This document shows positions 35,345-45,142 of a stretch of DNA of 64,000 nt, in pieces. Position numbers and translations under genes: made by a program. Numbering within the stretch: the stretch's first letter is position 1; the number at the start of each line of letters is the position of its first letter. The notes beneath the pieces were generated by a model. That model did no database searches, was not told where the DNA came from, and was given only the letters and a program-made list of their open reading frames with translations. The DNA comes from Verrucomicrobiia bacterium (GTDB lineage: Bacteria; Verrucomicrobiota; Verrucomicrobiia; Limisphaerales; UBA1319), in assembly GCA_963664225.1 (NCBI GenBank), contig OY760937.1:3136001-3200000 (forward strand). Reading direction: 5' to 3'.

Positions 35345-36078
35345 GCAAGCGTTGTATCACGCAATGAGACGCTTGCAATAACTGTTTTGCCCTGCCTGAG
35401 GTGCAGGAAAAAATTCTTCGGCAAGCGAGAAAGTCCTTATGAAGGGCATGTGAGTCTATACGAAACAAATATAGCAAGAGTTTCGGGATTGGCCGGGCGC
35501 CGATTGAGGGTCCGGCAAAAGTCAGATCTGAAAGGACGACCGCCCTCATGGAATGACGACCGCCCTCCCCATGAACCCAAAGTGGGGTGTCTTTCGTTAC
35601 AAGTTACATGGAAAGAAGTGGGTGAAGAAACATCAACATGGATAGGCAGGATGAGCAGGATATTTGACCACTGATATCACGGACGAGAAAGGAAATGGAT
35701 AATTGAGAATTTTAAAAAAAGACAAACATCCAATGGATGGGGATAGGCAGGGGAAAATCCGCAGATGAAACTGAGAAACGCAGATTAGGAGAACGAGAAG
35801 AGGGTGGATTTTGAAACCGCGAATGAACGTCAATAATTGGGGATCGGGAAAAAGGAATTGAACCACGAAATATGCGAAATGGAAAAAAGGATTGACGCAC
35901 GCCCTCATCCCGACCTTCTCCCCCAGGAGAAGGAGTAGTGTTGCGAGCCCTGGATTTATTGAACGGTTTGGAGGATGCCGCCGCGTGGGGTTGGTATAGG
36001 AGGAAAATATTAGTTGGTATGGAAAAAAGGATTGACGCACGCCCTCATCCCGACCTTCTCCCCCAGGAGCAACGGTAT

Positions 36079-36987
36079 TTAATTTGAGAGTGCAAAATCT
36101 GCGTTTTTGAGGATTTGGTTCATCAGGACAATGAGTTTGCGCATGACGGCGGTGAGCGCGACTTTGGCGGGCTTGCCCGCCAATCGGAGTCGTTCGTAGA
36201 ACTCCTTGAGTTGGCGATTGCAGCGCGCAGCCACCAGGGCGGCCATGTAGAGGGCACGTCTAACGGCGGCTCTTCCGCCACCGATGGAGCGGCGGCCTTG
36301 CCACTGGCCGCTTTCTCGAGGATGTGGAGCCAGTCCGGCCAAGGCGGCGGCCTGCCCCCGATTGAGCGTGCCCAACTCGGGCAGCTCAGCCAAAACCCCC
36401 AAGGCGGTAATCGCGCCCACCCCGGTGATGGCTTCGAGTTTTTTTGCGCGTTCATCCAGTTCTGTGGTTTTCTGGCGCAGCGCTTTGAGTTGGGTCTCGA
36501 TATGCTCCAGATCCCGTTCCAATCGACGCAGCAGGCTCTGGGCCTGGCGGCGCAACTTGGGCAGCGTGAGGCGTTCGATCTGATGGCGCTGGCTAATAAG
36601 CAGATCAAGGATCTGAGTGCGGCGGCGAACCAGTTCGGTCAACTGCTCCTCCACCTCGGAACGCGCGGGCGTGGGTTTGGGGGCGAAGGCCTGCCCATAG
36701 GCGGAGAGGACGGCGGCATCTATACGGTCGGTTTTGGCCCGTTGTCCCTGGGCGCGGGCGGGATTGATGATGCTGACAGGAATGCTGGCATGATGGAGGG
36801 CGTCAGCCACCTCACGCTCGTAGCCGCCGGTGGCTTCACAGATGACGTGAGCGCCGGGATGCTGCGCCAGGAGTTTGACGAGCTGGCGATGACCGGCGGC
36901 GGTATTGGGCAGATGGTGGGAACGACCGGCCAGTTGGAGATCAAGACTCAGCTTGGCAATATCCAAACCAGCGTAGATAGTGGTCAT
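36079..36987 (-). CDS. IS110 DEDD recombinase/transposase
   Basis: AGLDIAK, CEATGGYE, KTDRIDA, GVGAITA, GLAPHPRESG and ALYMAA motifs; alternative start at 37002. Confidence 0.93.
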   Translation of the reverse strand: MTTIYAGLDIAKLSLDLQLAGRSHHLPNTAAGHRQLVKLLAQHPGAHVICEATGGYEREVADALHHASIPVSIINPARAQGQRAKTDRIDAAVLSAYGQAFAPKPTPARSEVEEQLTELVRRRTQILDLLISQRHQIERLTLPKLRRQAQSLLRRLERDLEHIETQLKALRQKTTELDERAKKLEAITGVGAITALGVLAELPELGTLNRGQAAALAGLAPHPRESGQWQGRRSIGGGRAAVRRALYMAALVAARCNRQLKEFYERLRLAGKPAKVALTAVMRKLIVLMNQILKNADFALSN

Positions 36988-36988
36988 A

Positions 36989-37170
36989 GTGTTCTGGCTC
37001 ATTCTTGTAAATACGAGCAGGCCTTGGTGGGCCGCTCAAGCAACGGTTCGAGTTTAGGACACAGGCACGAACGGCTCTGGCTCCTCGCGCATTTGGTTAA
37101 AAACCAATGCAAGAAGGAAACGAGCTCGTCCGCGCCACTGTCCTGCCGCCTGCAGGCGGCAGGACAGTTC
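36989..37170 (-). ncRNA. Predicted bridge RNA of IS110 no.1
   Basis: 5' hairpin, target-binding loop and donor-binding loop with guide segments matching the element's own junctions (see findings). Confidence 0.8.
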
Positions 37171-37624
37171 CATCTATTCCGTCTTTTCAAACAAAACAAG
37201 AATAGATGGAAAATCAGATACAAGAAGGAGGAGTATTGGGAGATGTCGGTGTGTTTGGATGGTTTGGGAGGTGCCGCCGCGTGGGTTTGGTATAGGAGGA
37301 AAATATCAGTTGGTATGGAAAAAAGGAATGACGCACGCCATCATCACGGCTAAGCGCTGGCATCCCTGCCAGGATGCTTGAAGGGAATTGTTTGAATGGG
37401 AGAAGGGAAGAATGTGGGTTTTACGAATTAGAGCAGGCCATCGGATTATCGAGAGGGCTAGAAATATTCAAGCTTCCCTCCATTTGAATGGTGCGCCGTC
37501 TAAAGACGGGACTCCATACCCCGGAACGCCGCGCGCCGAGAATGACGTCACCCATGGCATTACACTTTTGGCTGCAGGATCGTTGGTTTCCAGACCAGGG
37601 GATTAGAGTGGGTTTGAGACGGTG

Positions 37625-40294: not shown

Positions 40295-43120
40295 ATGGCA
40301 ATGGACTATAAAAATTCGTTGAATTTGCCCAAGACGGACTTCCCCATGAAGGCCGATCTGGTGTCCCGGGAACCCCAGCGTCTGGAAAAGTGGGAGTCGG
40401 GCCAACTGTATGAAAAAATCCTGGCCCGGCGGGCGGCGGCCTCGCGGTTTATTTTGCATGACGGGCCGCCGTTCGCCAATGGGGATGTGCACATCGGCAC
40501 GGCGCTGAACAAGATTCTCAAGGATTTCATCATCAAGTACCACACGTTGCGCGGGCAGAACGCCCCCTATGTGCCGGGCTGGGATTGCCATGGGCTGCCC
40601 ATCGAATTCAAAGTGGTGCAGGAGCTTCGCAAAAAGGCCGGGGAAGCCGCCGCGGGGGCCGATGCCGCCACGATTCGCAAGGAATGCGCGGCGTATGCGC
40701 GCAAGTATATCGATTTGCAGCGGACGCAATTCAAGCGCCTGGGTGTGCTCGGGGATTGGGAGCATCCCTACCTGACGTTGGACCCCGCGTATGAAGCCGC
40801 GGAGCTGGGAATGTTCGCGGATATCGTGGACAAGGGCTTCGTTTACCGGGGCAAGAAACCGGTGTATTGGAGCATCCCGTGCCGCACCGCGCTGGCCGAG
40901 GCCGAGGTGGAATACCAGGACCATGTGAGCCAGAGCGTGTTTGTGAAATTCCCGGTGATCGGCCGGCCCAACACCTTTGTGGTGATCTGGACGACGACGC
41001 CGTGGACGCTGCCCGCGAACCTGGCCATCGCCTTTAATTCGACCCTGAGCTACACGATCGTGCATACCGGCGATGCGAGCTACATCGTCGCTGTGTCGCT
41101 TTTAAGTTCCGTGGCGGAGAAATGCGGCTGGGAGAATTACCAGATCATGCGCAGCCTCACCGGCGAGGAACTGGCGACCTATGTCTGCCAGCATCCGTTC
41201 TGCAACCGGCCCGCGCCGTTGCTGGCGGGAGACGCCTTCGTGGAGAGCACCACCGGTTCGGGCTTTGTGCATATCGCCCCGGGCCACGGTCTGGAGGATT
41301 ATCAACTGGGCCGTCAGAATGGCTTGCCCATCTACTCCCCGGTGGACGACAACGGCTGCCTGTGTTACACGCAAGACCTGCCCGTGGAGCAGCAGATGCC
41401 CGCGTCGCTGATCGGCAAAAGCATTCTGGAGAAGAATCACAAGAGCGATGCCAACGAGGCCGTTCTGGAGATCCTGCGCGAGGGCCAGATGCTTCTGCGC
41501 CAGGAGCCTTACACGCACAGCTACCCGCATTGCTGGCGGAGCAAGACCCCGGTGATCTTCCGCGCCATGGACCAATGGTTCATCCGCATCGACCATCAGG
41601 ATTTCCGCAACCAGGCCTTGAAGGCCATCGACCAGGTGAAATGGATTCCCGACTGGGGCAAGAGCCGCATCGAGGGGGCCGTGAAATCCCGCCCGGACTG
41701 GTGCATCTCGCGCCAGCGCTGCTGGGGCGTGCCAATCCCGGCCTTTTACGACGCCGAGCGCACTCCCATCCTGGACGCGCGCATCGTGCGCAACGCCGCC
41801 GCGTTATTCGAGAAATCCGGCTCCAATGTGTGGTTCGAGAAAACCGCGGAGGAATTATGGGCGCTGCTCCGGCCCGCGGATTGGAACGGTCCCGAGGCCA
41901 CCGCGAAATCGACCGACACGCTGGACGTGTGGATCGATTCCGGTTCCTCCTCGCGCAGCGTTTTGCAGAAGCGGCCTGAGCTGGCCCATCACCTGGCGGG
42001 TGTGGACGACTGGCAGGCGGATATCTACCTCGAGGGCAGCGACCAGCATCGCGGATGGTTCCAGTCCTCGCTGTTGCTCTCCCTCGCCGGGAATGGCGCG
42101 CCTCCCTATAAGACGGTGCTCACGCACGGGTTCATGGTGGATGCGGATCGCGAGAAAATTTCCAAGAGCAAGCAGGGCCAGGGCGGTTACGAGAAACCGC
42201 AGACCTCGGAGGCCTATGTCAAAAAATATGGCGCGGACGTGGTCCGGCTCTGGGTGGCCTCGCAGGATTATCGCAACGACATCATCGTGAGCGAGGAGCG
42301 CATCAGCAAGGTGGGCGAGACCTACCGCGTGATCCGGAACTCCCTGCGCTTCCAGCTCTCGAATCTCTTTGATTTCGATCCCGCGAAGCATCTGGTCGCG
42401 CCGGAGAAGATGACCGCGCTGGACCGCTGGATTCTGGACGCCTTTGCCGTGCTGGAGACGGAAATTGCCGCCGCCTACGAGGCGAGCGAGTTCCATGTGG
42501 TCTATCAGAAGATCAGCCAGTTCGTGGCGGTGGAGCTTTCCTCCGTCTATCACGATGTGGTGAAAGACCGCCTCTACACCGACGCGGCGAATTCGAACCG
42601 CCGGCGTTCCACGCAAACCGCCCTTTACTTGCTGGCGCGGGGCCTTTGCCAGGCGCTCTCGCCCATCCTGACCTTCACTGCGGACGAGGCCTGGGAATAT
42701 CTCCCCGGCGTTCAGCCAGGCGAATCGGTCCATGCCACGGATTGGACATTATTGGCGACCCGGCGTACTGAAGAGGAGCAGGAGACCTGGAAAAAGCTGA
42801 TGCACCTGCGGGACCTCGCGCTGCCGGAGCTGGAGAAGGCGCGCCAGGCCAAGCTCATCGGCAAATCGCTTGAGGCCAAAATAACGCTGACCGGACGGGC
42901 GGCCGAATTGCCCGCAGCGGATGCCGCAAAGGAAACGCTGCGCGAGTTGCTCAACGTGTCGCAACTGGAATTGATCCTGGACGAGGCGGACGTGGTCGTT
43001 TCCGTGGCGCGCTCCGGGGGTCAGAAGTGCGAGCGCTGCTGGCGCTGGGAATTGACGGTGGGCAGCCACACAGACCACCCGACCATCTGCGGGCGCTGTG
43101 TCGAGGCCGTGACGGCGTAA
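40295..43120 (+). CDS. ileS: Isoleucyl-tRNA synthetase (type 1)
   Basis: LHDGPPFANG, PGWDCHGLP, WTTTPWTLP, DWCISRQR, EGSDQHRGWF and KISKS motifs; C-terminal CERCW...CGRC zinc finger. Confidence 0.97.
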   Translation: MAMDYKNSLNLPKTDFPMKADLVSREPQRLEKWESGQLYEKILARRAAASRFILHDGPPFANGDVHIGTALNKILKDFIIKYHTLRGQNAPYVPGWDCHGLPIEFKVVQELRKKAGEAAAGADAATIRKECAAYARKYIDLQRTQFKRLGVLGDWEHPYLTLDPAYEAAELGMFADIVDKGFVYRGKKPVYWSIPCRTALAEAEVEYQDHVSQSVFVKFPVIGRPNTFVVIWTTTPWTLPANLAIAFNSTLSYTIVHTGDASYIVAVSLLSSVAEKCGWENYQIMRSLTGEELATYVCQHPFCNRPAPLLAGDAFVESTTGSGFVHIAPGHGLEDYQLGRQNGLPIYSPVDDNGCLCYTQDLPVEQQMPASLIGKSILEKNHKSDANEAVLEILREGQMLLRQEPYTHSYPHCWRSKTPVIFRAMDQWFIRIDHQDFRNQALKAIDQVKWIPDWGKSRIEGAVKSRPDWCISRQRCWGVPIPAFYDAERTPILDARIVRNAAALFEKSGSNVWFEKTAEELWALLRPADWNGPEATAKSTDTLDVWIDSGSSSRSVLQKRPELAHHLAGVDDWQADIYLEGSDQHRGWFQSSLLLSLAGNGAPPYKTVLTHGFMVDADREKISKSKQGQGGYEKPQTSEAYVKKYGADVVRLWVASQDYRNDIIVSEERISKVGETYRVIRNSLRFQLSNLFDFDPAKHLVAPEKMTALDRWILDAFAVLETEIAAAYEASEFHVVYQKISQFVAVELSSVYHDVVKDRLYTDAANSNRRRSTQTALYLLARGLCQALSPILTFTADEAWEYLPGVQPGESVHATDWTLLATRRTEEEQETWKKLMHLRDLALPELEKARQAKLIGKSLEAKITLTGRAAELPAADAAKETLRELLNVSQLELILDEADVVVSVARSGGQKCERCWRWELTVGSHTDHPTICGRCVEAVTA

Positions 43121-43149
43121 GGCCGCATTAACCATTTCCGTGTGTGAGA

Positions 43150-43191
43150 CCGGGGGACAGGTCCAGGAAAACCTGCTCCCCGGTTTTTTTT
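43150..43191 (+). terminator. Intrinsic terminator of ileS
   Basis: CCGGGGGACAGGT...ACCTGCTCCCCGG hairpin followed by a T run. Confidence 0.8.
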
Positions 43192-43299
43192 ATTTGAACC
43201 CGATCCCCGGTATGGGTCGCAGACGGGTCAGTGCGCGGGTGCGGGACAAAATTCTTCTGGGAGGATCTTTATGGAACCCCTGATACGGTTTCCACAGGT

Positions 43300-43570
43300 A
43301 ATCATCCGTTGGCGAGGAGAGCCCCGGGAAGCTCCCCGTAGCCAACGGTGAATAACTGTGCCGCCGCCAAAAAATCGAGCGGTGAAAAACTTTTGTCGCC
43401 GGGGTATAATGCTTCTGGCGGCATCGCCCCGGATGGATCACGGTCATACACCCCTTGTCTTAAGAAGACTGAGGAGAGTTTACCGGCCCGTCCGACGGCG
43501 CCTGTCAAAAAGTCTGAGAGAACTATTGCCCGCGAGGCTTCCTGTATCAGGTTGACTGACGACAGCGCTC
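43300..43570 (+). ncRNA. Predicted bridge RNA of IS110 no.2
   Basis: 5' hairpin (CCGTTGGC/GCCAACGG), then two internal loops with junction-matching guides. Confidence 0.78.
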
Positions 43571-43593
43571 CGATGCCCCGTAACGGAGGATCT

Positions 43594-44844
43594 ATGAAAT
43601 CATGGTTGGAGATATCCTGTTTTGCCGGATTGGATTGGGCCCGGGATCATCACGATGTGGTCATCGTCGATCGAGAGGGCAAGATCGTGGAACAGTTCCG
43701 CTTCGAGCATTCCCAGGAAGGCTGGGAGCAATGGCGGAAAAAGACGGCGCCCTTCGCCCCTTTGGCGGTGGCCATTGAGACGAGCTTCGGCACGGCTGTG
43801 GACCAGCTCCTGAGGGGGGAGGCAACGGTCTATCCGGTCAATCCCAAGAGCGCCCAGCGGTATCGGGATCGCAAGGTGCCCAGCGGCAGCAAGACCGATT
43901 TTCTGGATGCCTGGTCTCTGGCCGATGCCTTGCGGATCGACGGGCACGGTTGGAAAGCGCTGGTCCCAACGGACGCGCTGACCAGCCAGTTGCAGATGCT
44001 CTGCCGGGATGAGGTTCATCTCATCGGTCAGCGCACGCTGTTCGTAAATCAATTGCAACAAGCTCTCTTGGAATACTATCCGGCGGCCCTGGAGGCCTTT
44101 GAGGATTGGACCATGGCCTCGGCGTGGGATTTCATCATTGAGTTTCCAACGCCTCGTGCGCTGGTCAAAGCCGGCAAGCGACGGTGGGAAAAGTTCCTGC
44201 ACGTTCATAAGCTCTGGCGGCCGGAAACCGCTGAAAAACGGATGGGCATTTTTGCACGGGCCGATCAGTTTTGCGGCTCGGCGGCCCTGACGGCGGCCAA
44301 GGGCACCCTGGCGGTGAGCCTGGCCAAAATGTTACGCACGTTGCAGCAGCAACTGGATGTTTATCACGCGCAAATCCAGGCCTTGTTTGCACAGCACCCC
44401 GACCATGACTTGTTCGGTTCGCTGCCCGGAGCGGGCTCGTTTTTGGCTCCACGGCTGCTGGGAGAAATCGGCGGCGGGTCGGGCCGGTTTGAAAGCGCAC
44501 AGCATCTGCAGGGCATTGCGGGCACGGCTCCTGTGAGTTATCAATCGGGACAAATCGACAAGGTCCGCATCCGCCACCACTGCGACAAGTTCCTCCGCCA
44601 TGCCGTGCATCTGTGGAGCGATTGCAGTCGCAAGAAATGTCTTTGGGCACAGGTTTACTACCAGAAAAAACGGGAAGAGGGCAAAAGCCATGCCTGCGCC
44701 TTGCGATGTCTGGGCCAGCGGTGGCTCAAAATCATCTGGAAAATGCTCCAAACCCACGCGCCCTACGATCCGGAAATACATGCCAAAAACCAGCAGCTGC
44801 ATGGTTCGTGGGTGCTGAGTCTGCAGACCAAAACCGCCAGGTAA
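43594..44844 (+). CDS. IS110 DEDD recombinase/transposase (long type)
   Basis: FAGLDWA, AIETS, KTDFLDA, SLPGAG and GTAPVSYQSG motifs; RBS GGAGGA before ATG 43594. Confidence 0.93.
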   Translation: MKSWLEISCFAGLDWARDHHDVVIVDREGKIVEQFRFEHSQEGWEQWRKKTAPFAPLAVAIETSFGTAVDQLLRGEATVYPVNPKSAQRYRDRKVPSGSKTDFLDAWSLADALRIDGHGWKALVPTDALTSQLQMLCRDEVHLIGQRTLFVNQLQQALLEYYPAALEAFEDWTMASAWDFIIEFPTPRALVKAGKRRWEKFLHVHKLWRPETAEKRMGIFARADQFCGSAALTAAKGTLAVSLAKMLRTLQQQLDVYHAQIQALFAQHPDHDLFGSLPGAGSFLAPRLLGEIGGGSGRFESAQHLQGIAGTAPVSYQSGQIDKVRIRHHCDKFLRHAVHLWSDCSRKKCLWAQVYYQKKREEGKSHACALRCLGQRWLKIIWKMLQTHAPYDPEIHAKNQQLHGSWVLSLQTKTAR

Positions 44845-45142
44845 TATTGGTGAATAACTTTTATGAAAAACCATTTTACAACACAGAGAACAACTCTCCT
44901 CGGTCCTCTCCCCGTTCGTGCCTCACGGGGCGAGGAGGTGGAATGCGCGATTCGCAAGGTTTTGGCTTTTGGACGCATGGAAGCAGAAAAGATCGCTGAT
45001 GGCGCACAGCGGACTAACAGCCCTATATACTTCCATGTCGTTTTAAAGCCTTTTTCGGCATGCTGAAGAATTTTGTCGCGCGCCCTCAGTGCGCGCATTT
45101 AGAAAACACGGCTTGCACTTCAAATGAAGTCTGTTTCTATAG

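Follow-up and report, generated by a model that had tools for sequence, protein, structure and literature searches.

The DNA analyzed here (the window) is a stretch of 64,000 nucleotides from the genome of a Verrucomicrobiia bacterium, positions 3,136,001 to 3,200,000 of contig OY760937.1. It contains an IS110-group insertion sequence of 1,614 bp at window positions 43282-44895 on the plus strand, the strand of all features below unless indicated. This is very probably a recently active element that uses a bridge RNA encoded in its left end, as IS621 does. An earlier note on the same DNA had described it as an IS110 element with a bridge RNA of its own, encoded in the left end. The protein domains and fold, the conserved RNA helices, and the covariation of guides and handshake bases bear this out. 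By domain, fold, boundaries, RNA structure, guides, and handshake alike, the element is a bridge-RNA insertion sequence of the IS110 group.

The genome, a single contig of 5.78 Mb, contains four full-length copies. Each is 1,614 bp in length, starts with GATACGG, finishes with AGAGAACAACT, and has a CT core on both sides. The copies differ from one another at 0 to 9 sites (99.4-100% identity), and all have open reading frames (ORFs) without stops and identical loops. Between the window copy and each of the other three there are 8 or 9 differences, none of them within either guide loop. In the window copy, the left junction is composed of the left target (LT) GGAACCC (43273-43279), the core dinucleotide CT (43280-43281), and GATAC (43282-43286). 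The right junction is composed of AGAACAA (44887-44893), CT (44894-44895), and the right target (RT) CTCCTC (44896-44901). Because the same CT occurs at both junctions, the boundaries have the 2-nucleotide ambiguity usual for a CT core. No terminal inverted repeats or target duplication are present; the same CT borders all four copies on both sides, and an uninterrupted site has a single CT. The element is made up of a long left end of 312 nucleotides, an ORF, and a short right end of 49 nucleotides plus the core. Every string named in the earlier note was found in its place, and its boundaries, 43282 and 44895, recur in all four copies.

Relatives of the recombinase number in the thousands, are 416-450 amino acids in length, and share 65-70% identity; 4,240 proteins with E values up to 1e-20 were found among 8,000 candidates scored. 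A scan of one genome per species gave 80 loci, approximately 53 of which have Verrucomicrobiota-type labels. End motifs located the left end in 55 of 81 sources (the 80 loci and the window), for 43 distinct left ends. The ends of the relatives were confirmed independently by genomes with multiple copies. Forty-one left ends were aligned, with two types longer than 360 nucleotides omitted. A reduced alignment (A2) contains 34 of the 41, seven near-duplicates having been dropped.

The left end folds as a predicted bridge RNA with two internal loops when the 34 left ends of A2 are analyzed with RNAalifold. Compensatory changes are present in 25 of the 42 pairs, and both internal loops are closed by stems. 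The consensus consists of a long 5' hairpin (P1), a stem-loop with an internal loop that is closed by CGGT/ACCG and by a distal hairpin, and a second stem-loop of the same build. P1 spans 43293-43360. Its outer stem pairs 43293-43304 with 43349-43360 (alignment columns 12-23 and 82-93), and two of its pairs show compensatory changes in 6 and 14 of the 34 sequences. P1 contains GAGGAGAG (43314-43321) and the 9-mer GTGAATAAC (43348-43356).

The target-binding stem-loop occupies 43426-43499, with an outer stem of 43426-43435 paired to 43489-43499 and CGGT (43441-43444) paired to ACCG (43482-43485). It holds, in order, the left guide ACACCCCT (43448-43455), the distal hairpin (43457-43469), the right guide GAGGAGAG (43471-43478), and the handshake bases UU (43479-43480). 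The leader strings ACCCCT (43450-43455) and the hairpin GTCTT/AAGAC (43457-43469) described in the earlier note are among these parts. The donor-binding stem-loop occupies 43503-43564, with outer stems of 43503-43506 paired to 43561-43564 and 43511-43514 paired to 43554-43557. Its parts, in order, are the left guide AGAGAACTATT (43517-43527), the distal hairpin (43528-43538), the right guide GTATCAG (43544-43550), and the handshake bases GU (43551-43552). In a single-sequence fold, a CTCCG pairs with CGGAG (43567-43587), masking the ribosome-binding site in front of the recombinase gene.

The region 43355-43425 had been described as an extra 5' domain. One conserved hairpin, P2, stands from that description; the rest is linker, A-rich ahead of P2, and no RNAalifold consensus helix was found within 43355-43425. 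P2 lies at approximately 43394-43423, with TATAAT (43405-43410) in its loop, and is defined by folds of individual sequences, in which 22 of the 34 relatives have z below -1.5 with differing inner sequences. On fixed alignment columns its signal is weak (67.8% paired versus 62.6% in shuffled alignments). Only part of the region can be called extra, since the RNA of IS621 also has a 5' stem-loop before its two loops, as described by Durrant et al. (PMC11208160). A long-range helix picked out by eye, TGCCGCC/GGCGGCA (43359-43365 with 43417-43423), was dropped after several relatives were found to break the pairing.

In the geometry given by Durrant et al. (PMC11208160), the left target guide runs in the same sense as LT and the core, and the stretch of core and RT is read in reverse complement by the right target guide. 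Both guides were scored against the flanks of each element for 28 distinct target loops and compared with 2,000 shuffles; locus L015, which has a mis-called right end, was retained in this test. For the left target guide, the longest run identical to LT plus core averages 6.39 with an element's own flanks and 3.18 with shuffled flanks (standard deviation 0.24, maximum 4.21). For the right target guide, the contiguous complement counted from the core averages 6.43 with own flanks and 2.62 with shuffled flanks (standard deviation 0.24, maximum 3.50). The four guides are thus as the earlier note named them, the target guides tracking each relative's own flanks and the donor guides matching conserved ends. 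Its claim of a longer right target guide is true of this one site only. The right guide pairs with the core and five further nucleotides in 17 of the 28 loops and with the core and six in 4, the window among the latter, so the 8-nucleotide match of the window is a property of this site and not of the lineage.

The 8-mer GAGGAGAG occurs three times in the window, versus 1.01 expected, and all three are in this element or its junction. The occurrence in P1 is identical to the right target guide of this copy. It was rejected as a guide, being conserved in relatives with other targets, and the identity is probably a coincidence. From one sequence alone, the two occurrences could not have been distinguished.

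The donor guides match the element ends. The left donor (LD), AGAGAAC-AA plus the core CT, lies at 44885-44895, and its AGAGAAC is the same in the element end and the guide in 28 of 28 cases. At the four positions after AGAGAAC, guide and right end agree in 16, 14, 19, and 1 of the 28. In the window, the string AGAACTATT (43519-43527) matches AGAACAACT at 7 of 9 positions. The right donor guide GTATCAG is the complement of CT plus GATAC in 30 of 30 left ends. Four relatives start with AATAC, and in all four the guide reads GTATTAG.

In IS621, as described by Hiraizumi et al. (PMC11208158), the two bases after each core complement form a handshake by pairing with positions 6-7 of the partner DNA. 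These bases were counted in 30 distinct combinations drawn from 44 rows, with L015 dropped and 5,000 shuffles. The base after the AG of the target loop forms a Watson-Crick pair with donor position 7 in 28 of 30 combinations and a G-U pair in the other 2, with all four pair types present; the shuffle mean is 10.7, and none of the 5,000 shuffles is as high. The base after the AG of the donor loop forms a Watson-Crick pair with target position 7 in 21 of 30 and a G-U pair in 2 (shuffle mean 11.5; 1 of 5,000 as high). In the window, UU (43479-43480) faces AA of the donor, and GU (43551-43552) faces CC of the target. This covariation, absent from the earlier note, is the strongest sign of an IS621-type mechanism.

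The recombinase gene (43594-44844) encodes 416 amino acids and is preceded by a GGAGGA ribosome-binding site. The protein combines a DEDD RuvC-like domain with a coiled coil, which carries a helical insert of approximately 60 amino acids, and with a Tnp domain containing Ser318. It matches PF01548 at residues 11-163 (E 4e-30), PF02371, the C-terminal Tnp domain, at residues 273-356 (E 6.5e-14), and the NCBI model NF033542 "IS110 family RNA-guided transposase" with 176.7 bits against a cut-off of 140. D14, E62, D102, D105, S318, and G319 are invariant among 19 sequences. The catalytic residues given for IS621 are D11, E60, D102, and D105, with S241-G242 (PMC11208158); S318-G319 align with the ESG of ISCro4, which corresponds to S241-G242 of IS621. 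The AlphaFold model has a pLDDT of 83.7, and its best structural match is IS621 (8wt9_D; E 2.4e-14, TM-score 0.58 by query and 0.75 by target, 18% identity). By sequence, the only solved relatives are IS621 and ISCro4, at E values near 2e-6.

The IS621 protein is reported to consist of RuvC (1-122), a coiled coil of two helices (123-188), and Tnp (189-326) (PMC11208158). In the model of the present protein, long helices at 128-161 and 230-267 bracket four short helices (163-221), so the extra length reads as an insert at the tip of the coiled coil. A length of 416 amino acids is not unusual, since the IS110 family ranges from approximately 300 to 460 (PMC11208160). The window contains another IS110 element (IS110 no. 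1), the 307-amino-acid ORF of which lies at 36079-37002 on the minus strand. The earlier note had called the present protein much longer than that of no. 1 and unlike it; the two are barely alignable, with 26% identity over 106 amino acids.

The otherwise different flanks of the four copies have ACCC-CT-C in common. The window copy is flanked as GGAACCC|CT...CT|CTCCTC, and the other three as TGAACCC|CT...CT|CTCTTG, CGCACCC|CT...CT|CGCCTT, and ATCACCC|CT...CT|CACCCC, with ACCC in the left target of all four. At genome position 797,217, the intergenic repeat is present without an insertion and reads ttgttgaACCCCTCTCCTCattcctctccccg, which is LT-CT-RT (GAACCC-CT-CTCCTC). The earlier note had taken the targets to be REP (repetitive extragenic palindromic) hairpins. 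In that form the claim is not borne out, as only two of the four copies (the window copy and one other) are inside the repeat and the repeat is low-copy, an exact 20-mer of it occurring twice. The third copy (minus strand, genome positions approximately 968199-969822) lies within a 737-amino-acid frame that is stop-free after in silico removal of the element, with 681 nucleotides of the frame to the left of the insertion site and 1,530 to the right, and probably disrupts a gene. The fourth copy is near the start of a 170-amino-acid frame.

Two further observations concern the repeat. An unoccupied copy at genome positions 445656-445793 reads GAAC-AA-CT-CTCCTC where other copies have GAAC-CC-CT. 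This AA equals positions 6-7 of the right end of the element, the handshake positions; aberrant recombination could have left it as a footprint, or two substitutions could have arisen by chance. A decayed fifth insertion (locus L005, genome positions 5568848-5569005) is a truncated left-end fragment, 88% identical, that follows AAATCCC|CT. It comprises P1, the linker, and the start of P2, and is followed by approximately 800 bp of unrelated DNA and then the right part of the target repeat.

The course of transposition would follow that of IS621. The element would excise as a circle with a joint reading AGAGAACAA-CT-GATACGG. The joining of the ends would form a promoter, for which the candidate -35 half is TTTACA (44875-44880) and the candidate -10 half is TACGGT (43284-43289), 17 bp apart in the joined sequence. 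The earlier note had proposed such a junction-formed promoter, and its motif is conserved in 28 of 32 distinct junctions (L015 dropped). All 32 contain TAC[CG][GA]T, and in 28 a hexamer with at least 4 of 6 matches to TTGACA is located 16-18 bp upstream of it. Transcription would start near 43295, approximately 7 nucleotides past the -10 at the foot of P1. The transcript would carry, in order, P1, the linker with P2, the target-binding loop, the donor-binding loop, and the recombinase message. ACACCCCT, in the sense of left target and core, would pair with the bottom strand, and GAGGAGAG, complementary to core and right target, with the top strand; AGAGAAC.. and GTATCAG of the donor loop would act likewise on the element ends once joined. 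In each loop, the two bases that follow AG would guide the handshake with the partner DNA. The DEDD/Ser recombinase would bind this RNA and exchange strands at the CT core, leaving no duplication.

Several results weigh against the bridge RNA reading. Three loci score poorly in the guide test: L062 has a left run of 3, L021 a right match of 2, and L015 a right match of 0, the last explained by its mis-called right end. The left donor guide of the window matches only 9 of 11 positions. A search of Rfam with E values up to 1 gave no match; whether Rfam 15 includes a bridge RNA family was not established. None of the sequencing runs listed for this stretch is an RNA run, and the transcript with its start and 3' end is a prediction. 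The -10 hexamer TACGGT has only 3 of 6 matches to TATAAT (T1, A2, and T6 are kept). At the sites of the other three copies, the right guide matches only 5, 3, and 3 contiguous nucleotides and the left guide, read from the flanks, 6-7; the choice of site is thus not fully accounted for by pairing. This tolerance is similar to that of the "half-match" insertions described for IS621 (10.64898/2026.08.31.748434). Contigs assembled from public sequencing runs X1, X2, X4, and X5 contain no joint from 44895 to 43282 and none skips the element. The contigs from these four runs break at 43276-43279 and 44894-44896, as expected for a repeat, and the result is uninformative on circles or excision.

It is extremely unlikely that the guide matches are coincidental and that the recombinase alone recognizes its target. 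The poor right-guide matches at three of the four insertion sites, and the presence of GAGGAGAG in P1 without a guide role, would speak for coincidence, but the guide columns track each relative's own flanks far beyond shuffles, the handshake bases covary through all four pair types, and where the right donor differs, its guide differs with it (four of four cases). It is also very unlikely, somewhat less so than coincidence, that the copies are inactive relics. The missing circle junction among the contigs and the truncated fifth copy point that way, whereas the four full-length copies retain near-identity, open frames, and identical loops. In addition, run X5, from a related strain, has a loose end at 43279 that indicates at least one flank absent from this genome (two reads, low agreement).

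A shorter bridge RNA with a promoter of its own was also considered. The candidate, GTGAAA (43382-43387) and TATAAT (43405-43410) at a spacing of 17 bp, has 10 of 12 matches and is the only sigma-70-like match in 43100-45000, where 0.7 are expected. The RNA would begin near 43417, immediately ahead of the stem of the target loop. On this model, guide RNA and recombinase would be expressed from integrated copies independently of read-through or a junction, and P1 and the GTGAATAAC repeats would act as DNA and not as RNA. The same columns have at least 8 of 12 matches in 14 of the 34 relatives, and key positions are partly kept (T116 in 22, G117 in 24, A139 in 23, and T143 in 20 of 34). Read-through into this copy is expected to be weak, since the element sits just downstream of an ileS-like gene (941-amino-acid ORF, 40295-43120), immediately after a terminator-like hairpin and T-run (43150-43190). 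An internal promoter would matter because IS621 is reported to need read-through transcription to start excision (PMC13626964). Against it, the -10 falls inside the loop of P2, which forms in most relatives with different inner sequences, and this makes both the internal start and the resulting expression from integrated copies unlikely. The best-kept linker bases, TTTGC (columns 125-129), lie in the spacer and form the stem of P2, such a site is missing from the promoter columns in 14 of the 34 relatives, and the covariation of the P1 outer stem fits an RNA made from the junction promoter.

Assignment to the IS1111 group was ruled out. Members of that group belong to the same recombinase family, but are described as having a long right end that contains the bridge RNA, as well as long subterminal inverted repeats (PMC11208160), whereas here the right end is 49 nucleotides and the loops are in the left end. 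IS621 of E. coli, as described in PMC11208160 and PMC11208158, shares with the present element the CT core, a left-end RNA composed of a 5' stem-loop, a target loop, and a donor loop, left guides in top-strand sense and complementary right guides, the 7 + 2 + 5 nucleotide geometry, handshake bases beside the core complement, and a sigma-70 promoter split over the right and left ends (here at the level of motif). The protein fold and catalytic residues are shared as well. The two differ in that the proteins are 18% identical, with a sequence E value of only 2.4e-6, and that the IS621 protein has 326 amino acids versus 416 here, the extra being the helical insert between the coiled-coil helices. 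The IS621 RNA is 177 nucleotides, while the left end here is 312, of which approximately 270 lie between the predicted start and the end of the donor stem. P2 is additional here, P1 is much longer, and the GTGAATAAC 9-mer is present in both ends.

ISCro4 (PDB 9t56) is the second-best structural match and the best sequence match among solved chains; compared by protein alone, it is 18% identical and, at 341 amino acids, differs in length. ISPpu9 and ISPpu10 of Pseudomonas putida, REP-targeting IS110 elements (PMC12288879, 10.64898/2026.03.19.712850), are described as likewise inserting into a repeated intergenic sequence with a hairpin beside the pairing site; here only two of the four copies are in the repeat, which is low-copy.

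The right-end copy of GTGAATAAC is located at 44850-44858, is followed by ATGAAAAAC, and is kept in the right ends of relatives. The 9-mer has three matches in the window versus 0.30 expected, two of them inside the element. Among the relatives, a clade comprising loci L028-L033 and L078-L087 has right ends of 231-266 nucleotides versus the usual 50-70 or so, and some of its members also have left ends of 405-545 nucleotides; the clade retains the usual end motifs. In one metagenome genome (loci L022, L024, L026, and L027), several insertions of a relative lie in another repeated element; they occupy two different sites, both with CT-CTGCG on the right. IS110 no. 1 (window 35880-37350, minus strand) is single-copy in this genome and is flanked on both sides by a direct repeat of approximately 85 bp that reads ggcgtgcgtca.tcctttttt..ccataccaact.atattttcctcctatacc.. 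and has a further partial copy downstream.

Most members of the lineage found here are from Verrucomicrobiota metagenome genomes; the part of the IS110 and bridge RNA literature that was checked contains no mention of "Verrucomicrobi". A more far-reaching reading, which we consider improbable and rank below the internal promoter itself, is that of a large lineage of recombinases of approximately 416-450 amino acids with an enlarged, four-hairpin bridge RNA. In it, P1 (with GTGAATAAC) and P2 would be bound by the insert at the coiled-coil tip, and P2 would double as an internal promoter region. If this were true, integrated copies would make guide RNA and enzyme without read-through, and the start of excision would differ from that of IS621.

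The element adds a distant lineage to a known system; it is not a new system and does not by itself open a new question. It accounts for four insertions in this genome, one of them probably disrupting a gene. The full bridge RNA logic of two loops, strand-specific guides, CT core, and handshake bases holds at only 18% identity to IS621, and a lineage this abundant would provide many natural guide and target pairs for the mining of bridge recombinases.

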